DNA of 26,233 nucleotides, from the IMG/VR virus record IMGVR_UViG_2565956629_000010; one strand, written 5' to 3'. The notes below the pieces were generated by a model. It saw nothing but the letters and a program-made list of their open reading frames with translations. It made no database searches and had not been told where the DNA came from. The position numbers were made by a program, and so were the translations under genes. Below, in pieces: positions 1,140 to 12,972 of this stretch. Numbering within the stretch: position 1 is the first letter of the stretch; every line of letters starts with the position of its first letter. Source of the stretch: a virus (taxonomy: Duplodnaviria > Heunggongvirae > Uroviricota > Caudoviricetes).

Positions 1140-2657
1140 TTAATCAAATGATGTGGCCAGTTCAATTAATTCAATGTAATTATGTAAGGCATAAAAAGAT
1201 GTATTCAGACCATTCTCTATAAGGGCTCCTTGCAAATACTTTATAGCTGTATCACCATCAATAGGGCCTTGTTGAGATATAATCATTAGTGAATTTTGCC
1301 CATTGTTTTTTATACTTGATTTAAGCATGTTTATATTATTAATAAAATACAATGCAACATCTAAGTAATTTATTAATGTTAAATTTATTTTGGGCTCGAT
1401 CTGTGAGATGAATAATCTACTGCTCGCCGTTCTATAGATATAATTGACACCTATTCTTTGCTGATTTGTATCAAGATTTAATTCAAGGATGGCTTGAGAA
1501 ACACCTTTTAAATTGGAGCTTTGCTTTATCGAATCAGTGAAACGTTGTGCTGCATTTCTTCGACCAATTAGTCCATCTATAATTTGACGATCCTTATCAT
1601 ATATAATCATTAGCGAAATTATAAAAATATAATCTACTTTCTTTTTGACTAAATCAGATTTAAGAATGTCTATTAACCTTTCAGTATTTCGGATTGAGTC
1701 TCTTAGATTTAACCCAAATGCTTCAAATACGTTGGAAATATTTATTGAAAAGTCTTCTAATGTTGCTGTTAGTGGGTATGTTTTTGATGTGATATTTTCA
1801 AAATCGGTACCAATATAATCACCAACAACACCATTAATTAAATCTTTAAGTTCAGGTTGTTTTAAAGTAAATCTTCTATGAAAAAAACGGCCTAAATAGT
1901 CATTTGCGGAAAAATCATTACCGTAAACATTCTTGATTGAATGTTGTAATTGATCTGTGTCAGTAGCAATAATAAAGACAAAATTTTTAATATCGAATAT
2001 ATGTTTAACAATCTCTAAAAGAGAAATTGCATAATCTGGCCTGCATCTGTCTAATTCATCTATAAAGATAAATATAGGACATGAAAAACTATTTTCATAT
2101 GCCAACCTAGACCATAACGTTAGTTCTTTTTTTAATACCTTAATGCTCTTCAGTTTTTCCTGGTGTTCCTTCAGCATTATTAATGAGGCTTCTTTGGCTA
2201 TATCACCTACGTTATCTACTCCTGCATAAGTCTTGATTAGGCCAGATATGATTTCAGGTAGAACACCTTTTGTAAAGCGTCCGATAGCATGGCCGCTTTG
2301 TATCAATCGAGCATCAAGTTTTCCTGCATATGTTTGCAATTGTTGTGACAAAGAAGAAAAAAGGGTTAAAAATGCATCATCAGAAAAGTCTTGCTTCCAG
2401 GCATCAATGTAAACGCATGGGTGTGCATCTTTTATTGAGTTATAAAATCTCTTTATGAAAAAACTTTTACCAGCTCCCCATTCTGCATTAAGGTTGATTA
2501 CCGTGTTGTTCTTTTGCCCCTTTTCCTTAAGATAAAAATATAGATATTCTGCATAGTGTCTCCGATTAAGTTTGTCTTTGGAAAGAATTTCCTCTTCGTC
2601 GTCTAATATAAAGGTAGTTTCTTCATCCCAGTTCCAATTACAATCACCACATTTCAC
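1140..2657 (-). CDS. KAP-family P-loop NTPase (putative defence or abortive-infection effector)
   Basis: 505-aa ORF. Walker A NAEWGAGKSFF; Walker B-like hhhhDELDRC (IFIFIDELDRCRP), which I recall as characteristic of KAP NTPases. GTG start at 2657 with GGAG about 9 nt upstream. Visibly AT-rich compared with flanking phage genes. Only 25 bp downstream of the preceding gene on the same strand. Confidence 0.55.
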   Translation of the reverse strand: MKCGDCNWNWDEETTFILDDEEEILSKDKLNRRHYAEYLYFYLKEKGQKNNTVINLNAEWGAGKSFFIKRFYNSIKDAHPCVYIDAWKQDFSDDAFLTLFSSLSQQLQTYAGKLDARLIQSGHAIGRFTKGVLPEIISGLIKTYAGVDNVGDIAKEASLIMLKEHQEKLKSIKVLKKELTLWSRLAYENSFSCPIFIFIDELDRCRPDYAISLLEIVKHIFDIKNFVFIIATDTDQLQHSIKNVYGNDFSANDYLGRFFHRRFTLKQPELKDLINGVVGDYIGTDFENITSKTYPLTATLEDFSINISNVFEAFGLNLRDSIRNTERLIDILKSDLVKKKVDYIFIISLMIIYDKDRQIIDGLIGRRNAAQRFTDSIKQSSNLKGVSQAILELNLDTNQQRIGVNYIYRTASSRLFISQIEPKINLTLINYLDVALYFINNINMLKSSIKNNGQNSLMIISQQGPIDGDTAIKYLQGALIENGLNTSFYALHNYIELIELATSFD

Positions 2658-2682
2658 TATGAAGTCTCCATGAAAAATTTAC

Positions 2683-3606
2683 TTAATGTAAACAACTTAT
2701 AATAACTTTTGCAATAAACTCAATATCTGTAAGCGAACATTCAAAAGAGTGATTTTGGGATGAAATATAAACTCGTCCTTTAGGTAGTCGAGTTATCATT
2801 CTAAATGAATTCTCTCCATCAATATTTACTAGCCACTTACCATCATGTACATCTTTAAAACCCATTTCACATATTAATTCAGAGTCTTCGGTAGATACTA
2901 CGAATGCATTTTTTAAATTGGAAGGTAGAAAGCATGGGTCAAATAAATATGAGCCATCATTTATTAACTTGCCATTGATTAATACTTTTTTCACTAATGT
3001 TAAAGTATCTTTATTTTTTGCGTTTTTCATTTCTCCTGTACCAAATGAAATCCATTCAATAGAATGGCCCGTTTCTATTGCACACTGCAAAACCCAGTCT
3101 GCAGGAAAAATGTCACGCATGTATCGTGTGGCTAATGTGCTTTTTGAAATACCTAGGTGATCAGCTAATGCTTGGCGCGTTTTGTAACCGTAAGCCTCGA
3201 CAATTCGTTCTATTGTTGCCTTACCCCCTCGGTTAAAATTCATGAGTTTTTCATTATCGAACTTTATAGTGGGAATGTATACTTCATTGCAAAGGCCATT
3301 AACGGCATGTTTTTCAGAATATTGCTCTGATGAAGGAGCAGTATCTGAACCAAGAACTAACCATTCAATTGATGCTCCTGTTTCTATGGAACATATAACA
3401 ACCCAATCTGCAGGAAAGGTATTACGTGCATATCTGTTGGCCATAGTACTTTGGGAAATACCTAGATGATTACATAATGCCTGTCGTGACTTGAAGCCAT
3501 AGGCTAGGAGTATACGCTCAATAACTTTTTGCCCTCCACGATTCTGCATAACTATTGCTTTCAGATCGTTTTTGATATGGCTAAATTTTAATTTTTGAGT
3601 TGACAT
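2683..3606 (-). CDS. CI-repressor paralog with tandemly duplicated N-terminal HTH domain
   Basis: 307-aa ORF. Two consecutive copies of the CI N-terminal domain (RGGQKVIERILLAYGFKSRQALCNHLGISQSTMANRY...FPADWVVICSIETGASIEWL and RGGKATIERIVEAYGYKTRQALADHLGISKSTLATRYMRDIFPADWVLQCAIETGHSIEWI), then a C-terminal domain homologous to the CTD of the adjacent 191-aa repressor (KLINDGSYLFDPCFLPSNLKNAFV...HDGKWLVNIDGE...ITRLPKGR). Confidence 0.6.
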   Translation of the reverse strand: MSTQKLKFSHIKNDLKAIVMQNRGGQKVIERILLAYGFKSRQALCNHLGISQSTMANRYARNTFPADWVVICSIETGASIEWLVLGSDTAPSSEQYSEKHAVNGLCNEVYIPTIKFDNEKLMNFNRGGKATIERIVEAYGYKTRQALADHLGISKSTLATRYMRDIFPADWVLQCAIETGHSIEWISFGTGEMKNAKNKDTLTLVKKVLINGKLINDGSYLFDPCFLPSNLKNAFVVSTEDSELICEMGFKDVHDGKWLVNIDGENSFRMITRLPKGRVYISSQNHSFECSLTDIEFIAKVIISCLH

Positions 3607-7010: not shown

Positions 7011-9421
7011 GTCATGATGATATGAGCAACTCTAGCGGCTTTAACGAGGCCGCTGCAGCATTTTCATGGAACGGCCCGAAAAAGGCCATTAACCCTTATC
7101 TGGACCCGGCGGAAGTTGCGCCGGAGTCTGCACTTTCAAACATGATCACTCTGTACGCTGCCGATAACGAGCAGGAACAGCTGCGCCGCGATGCACTGAG
7201 TGAGCAGGTCTGGGAGCGTTATTTCTTTAATGAATCCCGTGATCCTGTCCAGCGCGAAATGGAGCAGGATAATCTCATTAGTCGGGCAAAGCTGGCGCAT
7301 GAGCAGCAGCGTTTTAACCCGGACATGGTCATTATGGCGGACGTCAGCGCCCAGCCCACCCACATCAGCAAGCCGCTGATGCAACGTATCGAATACTTCA
7401 GCAGCCTGGGCAGGCCAAAGGCTTATTCCCGCTATTTGCGTGAGACGATTAAGTCATGTCTGGAGCGACTGGAGTATGTACGCGACAGTCAGCTATCCGC
7501 TTCTTTCCGTTTTATGGCAAGCCATCAAGGGCTTGAGGGCCTGCTGATCCTGCCTGAAATGAGTCAGGATCAGGTAAAACGCCTGTCCACCTTGGTAGCA
7601 GCGCATATGAGCATGTGTCTTGAGGCCGCTTGTGGTGATTTGTATGCCTCCGATGACGTTAAGCCAGAAGAAATCCGCAAGACATGGGAAAAGGTGGCAG
7701 CGGAAACCCTGCGTCTGGATGTTATCCCGCCTGCGTTTGAGAAACTCCGTCGGAAAAGAAACCGCCGCAAACCCGTGCCCTATGAACTCATACCGGGTTC
7801 GCTGGCACGTATGCTTTGCGCCGACTGGTGGTATCGAAAATTGTGGAAGATACGTTGCGAATGGCGGGAAGAGCAGTTGCGTGCTGTCTGCCTGGTCAGC
7901 AAAAAAGCATCTCCCTATGTCAGCTATGAAGCAGTGACGCATAAACGTGAGCAGCGCCGCAAGTCGCTGGAGTTTTTCCGTTCTCATGAACTGGTGAACG
8001 AAGACGGCGACACGCTGGATATGGAAGATGTGGTAAACGCCAGCAGCAGCAACCCGGCGCACCGCCGCAATGAGATGATGGCCTGTGTTAAAGGTCTGGA
8101 GCTTATCGCGGAAATGCGTGGTGACTGCGCCGTTTTCTACACCATTACCTGTCCGTCACGTTTCCATTCTACGCTCAATAACGGCAGACCAAACCCAACC
8201 TGGACAAATGCGACGGTAAGACAAAGCAGCGATTATCTGGTCGGCATGTTTGCTGCATTTCGTAAGGCTATGCACAAAGCCGGGTTGCGCTGGTATGGCG
8301 TGCGGGTGGCTGAGCCGCACCATGACGGTACTGTGCACTGGCATCTCATGTGTTTCATGCGCAAAAAAGACCGCCGCGCCATTACTGCATTGTTGCGTAA
8401 GTTTGCCATCCGTGAAGACCGCGAGGAACTGGGCAATAACACGGGTCCACGCTTTAAGTCTGAGCTGATAAACCCGCGCAAAGGAACGCCGACAAGCTAC
8501 ATCGCGAAATACATCAGTAAGAACATTGACGGACGTGGTCTGGCTGGCGAGATCAGCAAGGAAACGGGTAAATCCCTGCGTGATAACGCCGAATACGTTA
8601 ATGCCTGGGCGTCTCTGCATCGTGTTCAGCAGTTCCGCTTCTTTGGTATTCCGGGGCGTCAGGCGTACCGTGAACTTCGCTTGCTGGCTGGTCAGGCGGC
8701 AAGGCAACAGGGTGACAAAAAAGCAGGTGCGCCGGTACTGGATGACCCGCGCCTTGATGCCATCCTGGCTGCCGCTGATGCTGGCTGTTTTGCCACCTAC
8801 ATCATGAAGCAGGGCGGCGTACTGGTTCCCCGCAAATATCACCTTATCAGAACAGCTTATGAAATTAACGAAGAGCCGACCGCTTATGGCGATCACGGTA
8901 TTCGTATTTATGGCATCTGGTCACCCATTGTACAGGGCAAGATCTGCACTCATGCAATGAAATGGAAAATGGTTCGTAAGGTCGTTGACGTTCAGGAGGC
9001 GGCAGCCGACCAGGGCGCTTGCGCCCCTTGGACTCGTGGCAATAACTGTCCCCTTGCTGAAAATTTGAACCAACAAGGGAAAGACAAATCAGCTGATGGG
9101 GACTCCAGAACGGATATTACCCGTATGAATGACAAGGAGTTGCACGATTACCTGCACAGTATGAGCAAAAAAGAGCGCCGGGAACTGGCTGCAAGGTTAC
9201 GCCAGGTGAAACCGAAACGGCGTAAAGACTACAAACAGCGAATTACAGACCATCAGCGACAGCAGCTCGTCTATGAACTGAAGTCCAGGGGATTTGATGG
9301 CAGCGAGAAAGAAGTCGATTTGCTCCTTCGCGGCGGCAGTATTCCGTCAGGAGCAGGCCTGCGTATCTTCTATCGGAACCAGCGTCTGAAGGAAGATGAT
9401 AAGTGGCGGAACCTATATTAA
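7007..9421 (+). CDS. A: P2 gpA-like rolling-circle replication initiator endonuclease
   Basis: 804-aa ORF following the early genes. HUH-type motif [13 protein letters not shown], and YIAKYISK with candidate catalytic tyrosines. Start overlaps the dam stop. Confidence 0.85.
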
Positions 9422-9516
9422 TTACGCGGGTTAACAATTCGTGCTCTTAATAATACCAGGCATATCAGGCCGATGAACGTAAAAAAAACGTTTTACATCA
9501 GTAAGATTATTATATA

Positions 9517-9532
9517 CTGTAAATATAAACAG
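9517..9532 (+). promoter_or_regulatory. LexA box (SOS operator) upstream of the tum-like/dinI-like genes
   Basis: CTGTAAATATAAACAG matches CTGT-N8-ACAG exactly with an AT-rich centre. Lies about 45 bp upstream of the 9575 start, within an AT-rich promoter-like stretch. Confidence 0.6.
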
Positions 9533-9574
9533 TGGTTATGTGTACAGTATTGTTTTGGTGTCATAGGAGGAAAG

Positions 9575-9763
9575 ATGCAGGACTATTTTTTGGAGTCTTT
9601 GAAGCTCCAGCGCATTGATTTTTTTCTTAAGCTTGTAGCGGCTAGTGAGTGTAGTGATGAAGAGAAGGGGCTGGCTCTGCAGTGGGTTTCTGAATTGACT
9701 GATGAACTCATGGCAAAAATCAGAAGCCACGAATACAACCGCTCAATGGATGTCATCAGCTGA
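9575..9763 (+). CDS. small SOS-controlled protein, possible Tum-like antirepressor
   Basis: ATG at 9575 with AGGAGG at 9565-9570. 62 aa. Sits between the LexA box and the DinI-like gene; in 186 the LexA-controlled gene at this position is tum, whose C-terminal part I recall as DinI-like. Assignment is by position only. Confidence 0.35.
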   Translation: MQDYFLESLKLQRIDFFLKLVAASECSDEEKGLALQWVSELTDELMAKIRSHEYNRSMDVIS

Positions 9764-9773
9764 GGTGACTTTT

Positions 9774-10007
9774 ATGCGCATTGAAATAATGATCGATAAA
9801 GAGCAGAAGATTAGCCAGTCTACCCTGGACGCCCTTGAATCCGAGCTTTACCGCAATCTGCGCCCCCTGTATCCCAAAACGGTAATTCGCATTCGCAAAG
9901 GTAGCTCTAACGGTGTGGAACTAACCGGACTGCAACTGGATGAAGAAAGAAAACAAGTGATGAAAATTATGCAGAAGGTGTGGGAGGACGACAGCTGGCT
10001 GCATTAA
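9774..10007 (+). CDS. dinI: DinI-family protein
   Basis: ATG at 9774 with GAGG at 9763-9766. 77 aa. MRIEIMIDKEQKISQSTLDALESELYRNLRPLYP...KVWEDDSWL parallels E. coli DinI as I recall it (MRIEV...ETWESADDWF), including the acidic C-terminus. Confidence 0.7.
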   Translation: MRIEIMIDKEQKISQSTLDALESELYRNLRPLYPKTVIRIRKGSSNGVELTGLQLDEERKQVMKIMQKVWEDDSWLH

Positions 10008-10199
10008 GAAATGTTGCCCCCAGGAGGATTCATTCTGATGGGGGCTAGTTTGGGCAATGAGTGAAATAAGGCGTAAGGTGGGCGGTTATTTTGATAAGTG
10101 ATCGTCCGCTTTGTGTCAGAAGCAGAAGTGGGAGTGTCTGAGACTCTCTAAAAGTTGATGATTCACTTACAAAACCATTTTCCTGATGGATGCTTACAC

Positions 10200-10535
10200 T
10201 TACGAATGATCATTCTGTTTAGTCTTCATGAGAAAATCCCGAATCTTTGCCAAGTTTGAATTTTCGGGGATTGAATCCATGTACGGATCACGCTCAAACA
10301 CTAATTGCTCAGATTCAACGAAAGCCTGCCACTCTACTGGGTCTAGCTCAAATCCCATTGCTGTCATATCACTTTCATCTTCCCCCTCGATCCAGTGGAC
10401 TAAATAAAACAATTCATCATCAGGAGAATCATCCTCACCATCAACAATATCAACATCGGTTACAGTGATACGTAGGGTGGGATCGATTTTTGAGACATAA
10501 ATTCCTAACTGTGGTATAGGGGGAATATTGTTCAT
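10200..10535 (-). CDS. small highly acidic protein of unknown function
   Basis: 111-aa ORF. ATG at 10535 with AAGGAG about 8 nt upstream on the minus strand. Runs of D/E (DVDIVDGEDDSPDDE, IEGEDESD). Sits between the replication/SOS module and cos, where P2 carries old/tin. Confidence 0.5.
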   Translation of the reverse strand: MNNIPPIPQLGIYVSKIDPTLRITVTDVDIVDGEDDSPDDELFYLVHWIEGEDESDMTAMGFELDPVEWQAFVESEQLVFERDPYMDSIPENSNLAKIRDFLMKTKQNDHS

Positions 10536-10847
10536 GGAAACTCCTTTTATTGGTGTTTGCTATTTGAATAAAAATACGCCAAACAGAGTGTTAACTGTGA
10601 ATATGGAAAGAATCGTTGTAAGTACCCCGCTTAGGTGTCCCATTCTATTTTAGAGGTTCTCGTGCATATGGATTATGTTATCTGAAAGTTAACTTCCGCT
10701 TCCCGTTCACAGCGAACATTCATCTTTGTAAACCCGTATGATCCGTTTTTCAAGTGGCCATTCAGATACGGATTTTTACTTCTTTGACAGTGCATGACTA
10801 TGCTGCATGAAATCGCATGATCGATTGAGGATCGTCTTTGCTCAGAT

Positions 10848-10870
10848 CCGCCAGAACTGGCGGGCTTTTG
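10848..10870 (+). terminator. candidate intrinsic terminator upstream of cos
   Basis: GC-rich inverted repeat CCGCCAG (10848-10854) / CTGGCGG (10857-10863) with a very short loop, followed by GCTTTTG. Confidence 0.3.
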
Positions 10871-10914
10871 CTCATGTCATGCATGTGCATGAAAACCACT
10901 GCATAAAGCGGGCA

Positions 10915-10933
10915 GGCGTGGCGGGGATACGAG
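10915..10933. other. candidate cos site (cohesive-end region)
   Basis: GGCGTGGCGGGGATACGAG followed by CGCGCGC. From memory the P2 left end begins GGCGAGGCGGGGAAAGCAC, giving a 13-nt core match with one mismatch. It is a GC-rich island in an otherwise AT-rich non-coding stretch, and its orientation toward Q is the same as in P2. Confidence 0.4.
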
Positions 10934-11014
10934 CGCGCGCAATGCTATGATCTGGCTCTTTCAAAACTGTTAACGGTTCTTCACATTCTTAAATGATCAT
11001 GGTAGCTTAAGCAT

Positions 11015-11145
11015 GCACATGTAGGCAGATTTGTTGGTTGTGGTATCGCAATCAGTGATCTAAATGTTAGATGGATTCGCCTTCTGACATCCTTGTAGCC
11101 ATTCTTGGGCTGTCCTATGCTTTGCGTAAGAGTGCCTACATGTGC
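11015..11145 (+). ncRNA. putative retron msr-msd locus bounded by a2/a1 inverted repeats
   Basis: Perfect 13-bp inverted repeat GCACATGTAGGCA (11015-11027) / TGCCTACATGTGC (11133-11145) enclosing 105 nt, immediately upstream of the RT gene on the same strand. A G at 11028 directly follows the left repeat (possible branching G). Internal stem ATCTAA-ATG-TTAGAT at about 11058-11072. Possible promoter -35 TTCACA (10980-10985). Confidence 0.5.
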
Positions 11146-11180
11146 CTACCCTAACTGATAATCAAGGTTGATTTTTAGAT

Positions 11181-12938
11181 ATGGCACCCCTATCAATTTT
11201 AGAACGTTTACAAAACGCTGCTAACAGGCAAGATTTGGCTAGTATCTTGAATCTTAAAACTGCTTTTCTTACGGATGTTATTTATCGTTTAAAAGCTGAA
11301 ACGCAGTATACACAATTTACTATTCCTAAAAAAAACGGAGCGCCGAGAGTCATATCAGCACCTACCACTAAGCTCAAAGATATTCAACGTAGATTAGCTG
11401 ATGTTTTATATTTATGTCGTGCAGAAATTTATAAAAAATATAATATTAATCCAGTTTTATCTCATGGGTTTGAAAAAGAAAAGTCAATTATTACGAATGC
11501 TGAACGGCATAGAGGTAAAACGCTACTACTAAATATAGATCTTGAGGATTATTTTGATAGTTTTAATTTTGGACGTGTTAGAGGTTTTTTCTTATCAAAC
11601 AGAGATTTTAGATTAAATAATACTGTTGCTACAACGATCGCACAAATTGCATGTTTTCAGAATGGACTTCCTCAAGGAAGCCCATGCTCTCCAATTATAA
11701 GTAACTTAATCAGTGGAATTCTTGATATAAGATTATCAAAGTTAGCAAAGAAATACGGATGCAATTATTCACGGTATGCTGATGATCTTACATTTTCAAC
11801 TAATAAAAAAACATTTCCAAAAGAGATTGCTGATGTTGGCGGAGAGTCTGTAACCCTAAGTCCAACTTTAATTAAAGAGATTATAAAGGCTGGCTTTAAA
11901 ATAAATGATAAAAAGACAAGGGTTTGTTATAAAACATCACGACAAGATGTTACTGGGTTGACTGTTAATAAAAAAGTGAATGTTGGCAAAGAATATGCAA
12001 AAGTAACGCGTGCAATGGCTCATTCTCTTTATAAAGATGGTTCTTTTGTTATTGTTACTGAATCAGGAAAGATTGAAAAAGGTACATGTGCTAAATTAGA
12101 AGGCCGTTTTGGATTCATTGACTCAATAGATAAATATAATAATTTAAAACTAAAGAACGCAAGACAGTTGGAAAAGTACCAAAGTGTAAATCATGGATTA
12201 AACTACACTGCAAAATTGAATTCGAGAGAAAAAGCCTACAGTTATTTTCTATACTATAAAAATTTTCATGGAATGGAAATGCCAACAATACTCACTGAGG
12301 GTAAAACAGACCGTGTATATTTAAAGTGTGCTTTGAAGTCATTGGCGAATTCATATCCTTTATTGTTTAATTCTTCTGATGATAGCTCTAAAAATGAGTA
12401 TCGTGTTAATTTTTTTAAAGCAACTGAAAAAACAAGCTATTTTCTTGACATTTCTGGCGGTGCTACAGACTTCAAAAGATTTATATTAAGATACCAAGAA
12501 CAAAAAAAGAGGTTCGAGAAATTTAAACCAAAGCACCCTGTTATTATGCTTCTTGATAATGACTCAGGCCCTAAAGATTTATTAAATCACTTAAAGGATA
12601 AAGTAAAAAATTGTCCAAATGATGTTGATACTATTCGTAAGGCAAGGTATACCCACATATTTGACAATCTCTATTTGTTATTAACACCATTGCTTCCTGG
12701 AGGGAAAGAGTCTTGTATGGAGGATTTATTTGATAGCACGGTACTATCAACGGTGCTTGATGGAAAGACATTTAATAAATCTAATGATACGGATACAAAA
12801 ACAGAATATGGTAAGCATGTGTTTTCAACAAAGGTTATAAAGGCAAATTGTAAAACAATTAGTTTTGAAAAGTTTAAAGTTATTTTTGATGGTATTGAGG
12901 AAATTATTGCAGATTATTCAAAGAGGTGCAAAGTATAA
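11181..12938 (+). CDS. retron-type reverse transcriptase with C-terminal Toprim-like domain
   Basis: 585 aa. RT motifs: FTIPKKNGAPRVISAP, LLLNIDLEDYFDSF, LPQGSPCSPIISNL, and the catalytic YADD in YSRYADDLTFS. The C-terminal half has Toprim-like EG..D (PTILTEGKTDRVYL) and DxD (VIMLLDNDSGPKD). AT-rich. Length is close to the 586 aa I recall for the retron-Ec67 RT. Confidence 0.8.
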   Translation: MAPLSILERLQNAANRQDLASILNLKTAFLTDVIYRLKAETQYTQFTIPKKNGAPRVISAPTTKLKDIQRRLADVLYLCRAEIYKKYNINPVLSHGFEKEKSIITNAERHRGKTLLLNIDLEDYFDSFNFGRVRGFFLSNRDFRLNNTVATTIAQIACFQNGLPQGSPCSPIISNLISGILDIRLSKLAKKYGCNYSRYADDLTFSTNKKTFPKEIADVGGESVTLSPTLIKEIIKAGFKINDKKTRVCYKTSRQDVTGLTVNKKVNVGKEYAKVTRAMAHSLYKDGSFVIVTESGKIEKGTCAKLEGRFGFIDSIDKYNNLKLKNARQLEKYQSVNHGLNYTAKLNSREKAYSYFLYYKNFHGMEMPTILTEGKTDRVYLKCALKSLANSYPLLFNSSDDSSKNEYRVNFFKATEKTSYFLDISGGATDFKRFILRYQEQKKRFEKFKPKHPVIMLLDNDSGPKDLLNHLKDKVKNCPNDVDTIRKARYTHIFDNLYLLLTPLLPGGKESCMEDLFDSTVLSTVLDGKTFNKSNDTDTKTEYGKHVFSTKVIKANCKTISFEKFKVIFDGIEEIIADYSKRCKV

Positions 12939-12948
12939 CTGTAATTAC

Positions 12949-12972
12949 AGGCAAAGAGTATGCTCTTTGCCT
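12949..12972. terminator. hairpin between the convergent RT and portal genes
   Basis: 10-bp perfect stem AGGCAAAGAG / CTCTTTGCCT with 4-nt loop TATG, followed on the plus strand by TGTATTGT. Lies in the 49-bp gap between the RT stop (12938) and the Q stop (12988). Confidence 0.45.

Follow-up and report, generated by a model that had tools for sequence, protein, structure and literature searches.

The window analysed here is the whole stretch of 26,233 nucleotides (nt) in IMG/VR virus record IMGVR_UViG_2565956629_000010. It is a 186-like prophage of the P2 family, identical to the prophage of Escherichia coli Ec1117 that is integrated beside rcdA/ybjJ. Its open reading frame (ORF) at 10200..10535 on the minus strand encodes a 111-amino-acid (aa) acidic protein that, judged by its profile matches, is a full-length member of DUF8087 (PF26332; phrog_17127). 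Mobile elements carry this gene as an accessory ('moron') unit that stands alone: it is tied neither to the neighbouring retron, nor to the KAP-family gene, nor to any other particular cargo. Our tentative explanation of its role is that the protein acts as an acidic decoy against a protein of rival phages, comparable to the exclusion proteins Tin and Orf97; we give this explanation a probability of about one in three (roughly 0.35).

The sequence-only reading of the window had described a small, strongly acidic minus-strand protein with a good ribosome-binding site (RBS), and the ORF, its charge and its RBS all bear out that description. The coding sequence starts with ATG, appears in the list of ORFs, and is preceded on the minus strand by ...AAAAGGAGTTTCC-ATG. 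As read from the sequence, this leader end includes the Shine-Dalgarno motif AAGGAG (10541..10546, minus strand) 5 nt 5' of the ATG, and the motif is kept in all copies of the cassette described below. With 15 D and 11 E against 4 K and 3 R, the protein has a net charge of -19.3 and an isoelectric point (pI) of 4.05. The acidic residues form two runs, VDGEDDSPDDE (31-41) and EGEDESD (50-56). At 40.5%, the GC content of the gene is below both that of the window (49%) and that of the phage core genes (50-53%).

A homologue search returned 61 DUF8087 homologues across Enterobacterales, in Escherichia, Raoultella, Providencia, Morganella, Citrobacter, Edwardsiella, Enterobacter, Serratia, Pectobacterium, Xenorhabdus and Klebsiella. 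Pairwise ratios of nonsynonymous to synonymous substitution (dN/dS) among them range from 0.06 to 0.38 and are mostly 0.1-0.2; between cassette copies from different hosts and contexts the ratio is ~0.2. The gene is thus under purifying selection, and the number of homologues, these ratios and the RefSeq annotation together identify it as a genuine gene rather than a chance ORF. Domain fusions give no hint of function, because the longer 'homologues' (P0003, P0039, P0043 and P0054) turned out to be artefacts of frameshifts or of read-through.

The family is already catalogued, as a Pfam domain of unknown function, as a PHROG and in the hotspot table of Rousset 2022, but it is uncharacterised. 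The match to phrog_17127 (2e-70) covers positions 1-111 of 111, the precomputed PF26332 assignment is present on all 61 homologues, and the identical protein in RefSeq is WP_001059831.1, a 'DUF8087 domain-containing protein'. A profile search among 1.84 billion representative proteins found only 35 relatives at E<=1e-3, from which we conclude that the family is small and specific. The distant relatives are 70-105 aa long and span query residues 5-80. In Table S5 of Rousset 2022, WP_001059831 is entered 50 times, always as 'hypothetical'. The literature searched contained no mention of DUF8087, PF26332 or WP_001059831, and no published function was found. What the present analysis adds is the exact slot of the gene, its separation from the retron, the anatomy of the cassette and its origin in a lysogeny operon, the variable slot between flkN and int, and the fold class.

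The sequence-only reading had placed the gene between the replication/SOS genes and cos, which agrees with its actual neighbours: the DinI-like gene of the SOS operon (9775-10007) on the left, and cos (10915-10933) on the right. It had also called this position the equivalent of the P2 old/tin hotspot. In substance this holds, as P2 old and tin are located in the gpA-gpQ accessory region (Rousset 2022, PMC9122126), but the position can be specified further. In annotated phage 186 the right end reads A, p95 (LexA-controlled), tum, t95a, orf97, t95b and cos, while at the left end cos is followed by tW, a terminator, and then by the portal gene. The borders of the corresponding slot were fixed by aligning the window with vB_EcoM-813R9 (which has an empty site), with Fels-2 and with the prophage L049. 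A GC-rich hairpin, GCCCCCA...TGGGGGC (10016..10045, strand unassigned), just 3' of the DinI-like gene, is the equivalent of t95a and forms the left border; the flank on this side is common to L049 and 813R9. On the right, a terminator-like hairpin with a T run (10847..10864, plus strand) is the equivalent of t95b. It lies within a conserved cos-proximal block that is invariant in the window, 813R9, Fels-2 and L049. By these alignments the DUF8087 gene occupies the slot of 186 orf97, from t95a to t95b and between the tum/DinI operon and cos. The same slot holds an orf97-like 243-aa gene in Fels-2 and a longer insert in L049. In the window, the DUF8087 gene runs on the strand opposite to the SOS operon, that is, in antisense orientation.

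The cohesive-end sequence of cos, GGCGTGGCGGGGATACGAG (10915..10933, plus strand) was recognised by comparison with the annotated cos of 186, GGCGTGGCGGGGAAAGCAT. The first 13 of its 19 bases match, and the alignment runs across the end junction of 186. An exact match to the P2 cos sequence was sought in the window and not found. Homology with BL21(DE3) ends at ~10944, just beyond cos, and the junction with the retron lies near 10945. This is consistent with work cited in PMC6868368 and PMC7826664 (Dodd & Egan 1996), according to which the site just past cos is a known retron insertion point.

The Ec67 retron therefore sits on the far side of cos from the DUF8087 gene, between cos and the portal gene Q. 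The alternative raised by the sequence-only reading, in which the acidic protein would serve the retron or the KAP module as an immunity or neutralising partner, is contradicted by the survey of carriers. In 27 IMG/VR prophages of the lineage (loci L026-L052) the DUF8087 protein is 96-100% identical and its gene stands at a constant distance from cos, while the cos-Q interval holds at least 20 unrelated cargos and is empty in one prophage (L042). The cargos include Ec67- and Ec86-type retrons, GmrSD, AIPR, DprA with PRTase, OLD/AAA ATPases, SIR2-like and TIR-like genes, and every one of them ends within ~30 nt of cos. The gene is present in well-known strains, namely BL21(DE3), REL606, E. coli W and the enteropathogenic E. 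coli (EPEC) E2348/69. BL21(DE3) has the identical protein beside retron Ec86 with its effector, E. coli W has it beside a GmrSD enzyme, and EPEC E2348/69 beside a DprA-like gene. Among 5426 complete E. coli genomes, 214 carry the DUF8087 gene with its ORF and strong RBS intact, and only seven of these 214 have the Ec67 junction. KAP homologues occur in only a few carriers, most carriers being without a KAP gene, and family members are also found in elements with neither retron nor KAP. The DUF8087 protein does not co-occur with one particular retron reverse transcriptase (RT) and non-coding RNA (ncRNA), and retron Ec67 itself matches the models of single-gene RT-Toprim systems. On this cargo survey a partnership with the retron or with KAP is rejected, and a link between gene and retron that had seemed attractive proves mistaken.

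The retron of the window is a complete member of the Ec67 family (type I-C, single-gene RT-Toprim; 10945-12938), located exactly between cos and the portal-gene terminator. Its parts are an ncRNA region (~10945-11180) and the RT-Toprim coding sequence (11181-12938, plus strand), which scores 2.8e-217 against NCBIfam retron_Ec67_fus; a hairpin lies at 12950-12971. A search of the retron region for msr/msd gave no Rfam match even at E<=1. A third accessory slot (1140-3606, minus strand) lies between the CI repressor and int. Two proteins are encoded in it, a P-loop NTPase of the KAP family (505 aa; PDC-S20, 8e-78) and another CI-like protein, which at 307 aa is longer than the first; other prophages of the lineage have different genes there.

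The DUF8087 gene travels as a mobile cassette made up of a leader of ~175 nt, the ORF and 45-250 nt downstream. Besides the 186-like slot, the cassette recurs in an E. coli island beside a 1589-aa helicase, in a Morganella island beside the Mokosh type II gene for MkoC, in an Edwardsiella lambdoid prophage and in Xenorhabdus; integrative islands also carry it. Its conserved leader (10536..10710, minus strand) is kept in four unrelated contexts. The 3' part of this leader is a 27-codon hydrophobic stub ending in ...LFGVFLFK-TAG (10560-10643, minus strand), which aligns with the 3' end, encoding the tail anchor, of the Flk_N-like gene in locus L057; the stop codon, the spacer and the RBS are all common to the two. 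On the other side of the ORF is the decayed N-terminus of a P2-type integrase, MIIRKCKHPSGKWFCK with its stop (10163..10213, minus strand), the ATG of which overlaps the last DUF8087 codons. This stub is 71 aa long in L049, L020 and L021, and intact integrases begin at the same overlap in L004, L057, L060 and L076. P2-like prophages of Klebsiella, Buttiauxella, Rahnella and others have the intact operon, in the order cI, flkN-like, DUF8087 and int. In these prophages the gene thus has a lysogeny-side placement, within the cI-to-int operon and overlapping the start of int.

Because both flanks of the cassette are gene stubs, we conclude that it was excised from a cI-flkN-DUF8087-int lysogeny operon. 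The sequence comparisons trace its path: the gene was first inserted in the small slot between the flkN-like gene and int of a P2-family lysogeny operon. It was later cut out together with the stubs of both neighbours, and then entered the orf97 slot of a 186-like prophage, on the opposite strand. The gene was not found by tblastn or blastn in 50,697 deposited phage genomes, and on plasmids it occurs in a single plasmid-labelled record, which is episomal and prophage-like.

Two other interpretations of the leader were considered. A structured RNA, riboswitch or small RNA is ruled out, as there is no Rfam match and the fold of the leader RNA is unremarkable (z = -0.64); the gene stub explains the leader better. 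The 27-codon mini-ORF is disfavoured as a type I toxin, because it lacks an RBS, has no ATG left in the copy from Morganella and shows homology to the tail anchor of the Flk_N-like protein. The hexanucleotide GGAAGC (CTTCCG on the plus strand) occurs once or twice in the window at the 5' border of the cassette (~10690-10710), and it is expanded to about six tandem copies in L049 (~7700-7760). These repeats may form a tract, at the edge of the cassette, that is prone to slippage. A diverged copy of the gene (33% identity) stands alone in Pantoea (L065, 7001-7309), between an MFS transporter gene and pgsA/uvrC, which is the attachment region of Klebsiella and Erwinia P2-like prophages; this copy appears to be all that remains of a decayed prophage.

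The structure of the 111-aa protein was predicted in two AlphaFold2 runs, with 27 and 39 aligned sequences, and the two runs agree. The mean predicted local distance difference test (pLDDT) scores were 75.9 and 77.8 and the predicted template modelling (pTM) scores 0.61 and 0.63, with the five models of the second run between 74 and 78. The models have strands at residues 11-15, 22-31, 43-50, 61-64 and 78-82, and helices at 66-76, 84-87 and 94-109. They predict a five-stranded SH3/Tudor-like barrel with one inter-strand helix, a C-terminal helical tail and two long acidic loops (residues 31-41 and 50-57); the acidic loop 32-42 is of low confidence. The sequence-only reading had suggested a comparison with the DNA mimics Ocr (T7 gp0.3) and ArdA, which, like the DUF8087 protein, are small, very acidic and encoded by mobile elements. 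The comparison gave no resemblance in fold. The predicted structure does not show the elongated shape with a B-DNA-like pattern of carboxylates, no Pfam, NCBIfam or PADLOC match relates the protein to Ocr or ArdA, and a profile search against all sequences of the PDB gave only a chance match (E = 0.29). As far as the models and profiles indicate, the protein is unrelated to Ocr, to ArdA and to any solved anti-defence protein. Since folds differ widely among DNA mimics, this excludes membership of those families, while a mimic mechanism is still plausible.

The fold class itself can mimic DNA: CarS of Myxococcus xanthus is an acidic SH3-like anti-repressor that mimics operator DNA and occupies the DNA-recognition helix of its target. 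In size, in its five-stranded SH3-like barrel and in its acidic surface CarS presumably resembles the DUF8087 protein. The other closest small barrels are DUF1653 (PDB 3be3), FeoA and Tudor/CarD-N. Proteins encoded in the same slot or hotspot, namely 186 Orf97, P2 Old and P2 Tin, share with DUF8087 a low GC content and an accessory look, but there are clear differences. Orf97 and the Fels-2 protein STM2726 are 243 aa long (phrog_1353) and encoded on the strand of the SOS operon, whereas the DUF8087 protein is 111 aa long and encoded on the opposite strand. Old is an ATPase-Toprim nuclease, whereas the DUF8087 protein has no recognisable enzymatic domain. Searches for homology of the DUF8087 protein to Orf97, Old or Tin found none, and there was no PADLOC match to them either.

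Its charge and size make a role of the DUF8087 protein as a nucleic-acid mimic or inhibitor plausible. We suggest that the protein would be made in the lysogen from its lysogeny-side position, where it would act stoichiometrically as a negatively charged decoy, mimicking a nucleic acid or another polyanion and occupying the basic nucleic-acid-binding surface of another protein. Production in the lysogen, rather than in the lytic programme, is what we infer from the placement of the gene, which is co-directional with cI and int, next to int in betaproteobacterial elements, or antisense to the SOS operon. The preferred target would be a DNA- or RNA-handling protein of a competing phage, which would amount to exclusion such as that by P2 Tin or 186 Orf97; the main alternative target would be a host defence nuclease. 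We prefer exclusion because 186 orf97, at the same slot, is annotated in its record with 'expression from plasmid blocks 186 infection', because P2 old and tin are at the same locus, and because defence genes are neighbours of DUF8087 elsewhere. A broader version of this explanation is possible but doubtful: DUF8087 might be a previously unrecognised class of nucleic-acid-mimic inhibitors, built on an SH3/Tudor-like barrel, that neutralises a nucleic-acid-binding protein of either rival phages or host defence. In that case the gene could be a moron of ~0.6 kb spreading among P2-family and lambdoid prophages and integrative islands of Enterobacterales.

Several points weigh against the decoy explanation. 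The mechanism is derived from charge, size and genomic context, its binding partner is a supposition, and the clustering of acidic residues on one face of the modelled protein is assumed. Few of the known exclusion or defence proteins combine small size with acidity, as many anti-defence proteins do, while the genomic positions of the gene are those typical of conflict genes expressed from a prophage. The direction of action, exclusion or counter-defence, is close to a coin toss. Absence from the 50,697 phage genomes fits a gene of prophages and islands, yet no plaque-forming phage is known that needs DUF8087. The 132 E. coli copies of the solo allele are almost identical, so nearly clonal that selection on the solo form is unmeasurable. 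Finally, a scan for a consensus sigma-70 promoter upstream of the gene found nothing; a weak candidate consists of TTCACA (10601-10596), a 19-nt spacer and TATTTT (10576-10571) on the minus strand.

Possible partners of the DUF8087 protein are the products of its recurrent neighbours; the window itself has no partner gene. The Flk_N-like protein is tail-anchored and ~210 aa long (phrog_5825; NCBIfam Flk, 3e-16), with weak similarity to the C-terminal region of Ant; a literature search on prophage Flk-like proteins found nothing relevant. Its gene is a regular member of the cI-int operon of P2-like prophages beside pgsA/uvrC (L003-L008, L025, L057-L061, L071-L077). In Erwinia pyrifoliae and E. 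amylovora it is intact without DUF8087, with int directly next, and in Hafnia a different gene, of 242 aa, fills the gap. The flkN-int gap is thus a small variable slot that is empty, holds DUF8087 or holds the 242-aa gene. The second neighbour, p127 (phrog_26730), is a 127-aa protein with an N-terminal hydrophobic segment, encoded 3' of the integrase stub in several contexts. In the 186-like slot of L049-L051 it is followed by a GNAT gene, and the window form looks like a deletion derivative of the longer, L049-type insert. Among E. coli genomes, 84 have p127, in every case together with the DUF8087 allele of ~90% identity and largely in one clonal island, and 132 have DUF8087 without p127.

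Defence genes near DUF8087 in other contexts encode MkoC, a TmtA/MkoA-like helicase, a TIR-STAND protein and Gabija. Outside P2-like phages, large genes of defence type adjoin the cassettes. In Morganella (L009, 3242-6751) the MkoC of Mokosh type II beside the cassette is full-length (1497 bits), and an ArdB/KlcA-type 'Antirestrict' gene lies ~4 kb from DUF8087 in the island. A 646-aa DUF4365-TPR protein is encoded beside the cassettes of Edwardsiella and Lonsdalea (L015/L023, ~8223-10163 and 9232-11172). In the betaproteobacterial, Nitrosospira-type GPA-replicon elements, distant DUF8087 relatives adjoin int and are divergent from the HTH_17/GPA replication operon, which is followed by TIR-STAND, BglII restriction-modification or Gabija cargo.

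The strongest rival explanation, though in our view rather unlikely, is the main idea of the sequence-only reading, that the protein is a counter-defence DNA mimic. It would block a nuclease-type defence of the host or of a co-resident element (restriction-modification, RecBCD-linked, BREX, Mokosh and others), and DNA of the prophage or island would thereby be shielded when it enters a cell or is induced. Many anti-defence proteins, including Ocr, ArdA, AcrIIA4, gp5.9 and Arn, are small, acidic and encoded by mobile elements, and the DUF8087 protein, with a net charge of -19, fits this pattern. The same explanation would account for the travel of the gene among many kinds of mobile element and for the 'Antirestrict' gene near the Morganella copy, and a gene of the lysogeny operon would also be on early, while lysogeny establishes. 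The dissimilarity in sequence and fold to Ocr, ArdA and any solved anti-defence protein argues against it, as do the lysogeny-side rather than early lytic positions and the distribution of the gene, which is absent from isolated phage genomes and known on plasmids from only the one episomal record. Moreover, a 2026 survey of 1511 P2-like prophages, in which only known families were detectable, found very few anti-defence genes (PMC13586616). Less probable still is a soluble partner, whether neutraliser, sensor or regulator, of the Flk_N-like protein or of p127, in a Rex-like exclusion or toxin-antitoxin module of which the window copy would be an orphan. For both candidate partners a membrane anchor is predicted, the flkN-like gene and DUF8087 stay paired even where FlkN identity falls from 97% to ~40%, p127 in E. 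coli is seen only beside DUF8087, and the block of DUF8087, integrase stub and p127 shifts among a lambdoid prophage, islands and the 186-like slot. Yet the Flk_N-like gene is intact without DUF8087 in both Erwinia species and in Hafnia, which weakens an obligate partner or antitoxin role, and DUF8087 stands alone in the 132 E. coli genomes and in other contexts. In addition, ~200 nt of decayed integrase separate it from p127, and the candidate partners are not basic (pI 5.5-6.6), which leaves the acidic surface unexplained.

The remaining explanations carry little probability. A regulator of the life cycle of the prophage itself is improbable, be it an anti-repressor that mimics the operator, a modulator of Int or Cox, or a modulator of the SOS switch through Tum or DinI. 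The overlap with the start of int in the ancestral operon, the closeness to the tum/DinI SOS operon in the window, an immunity-like place in betaproteobacterial elements, where the gene lies between int and the HTH_17-rep operon, and the precedent of CarS would all suit such a role. It agrees poorly with the occurrence of an identical protein alongside very different CI repressors, 38-100% identical to that of the window, with the persistence of the gene in islands without phage regulatory genes, and with P2-like prophages of the same lineage that do without DUF8087. It is even less probable that the window copy is an inert hitch-hiker, the relic of an excised lysogeny operon with neither promoter nor present function. 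Such a relic could have gene stubs on both flanks, no consensus promoter and a nearly clonal solo allele, as observed, but the intact ORF and strong RBS in all 214 E. coli carriers, the dN/dS of ~0.2 between cassette copies and the conservation of the leader together with the gene speak for a working unit. For a neutralising partner of the Ec67 retron or the KAP module there is nothing but physical closeness in the window. With cos standing between gene and retron, with the same protein beside Ec86, GmrSD, DprA/PRTase, AIPR, ATPase and SIR2-like cargos and at an empty site, with the rarity of the Ec67 junction and of KAP genes among carriers, and with Ec67 classed as a single-gene system, we regard this explanation as scarcely credible.

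The remainder of the window has the gene order of a 186-like prophage. It begins with int, the KAP NTPase (PADLOC candidate PDC-S20), two CI-like genes, CII, Fil, Dam and gpA, continues with a small ORF (phrog_698), the DinI-like gene and the acidic ORF on the opposite strand, and ends with the Ec67-family RT-Toprim retron, the portal gene Q, the terminase gene P and the late genes. In the SOS operon a LexA box, CTGTAAATATAAACAG, stands at 9517 and is followed by the 62-aa phrog_698 ORF (9575-9763). This ORF and the separate DinI-like gene are a split version of the single tum gene of 186. Longer ATG-started ORFs are listed at 9473 and 9702; these are probably not real starts.

Anti-phage systems are known to accumulate in the gpA-gpQ region of P2/186-like prophages. 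Our results show that P2-family prophages have further small variable slots, between tum and cos and between flkN and int, beyond the known cos-Q hotspot. DUF8087 has used both of them, and as a conserved, mobile and self-contained unit with a traceable origin in a lysogeny operon it is a clean candidate for functional study. If it is indeed a nucleic-acid mimic, no factor of this kind would have been assigned before to the lysogeny-side slots of P2/186-like phages, and confirmation of its function would bring to light a small exclusion factor or an anti-defence fold that is new.

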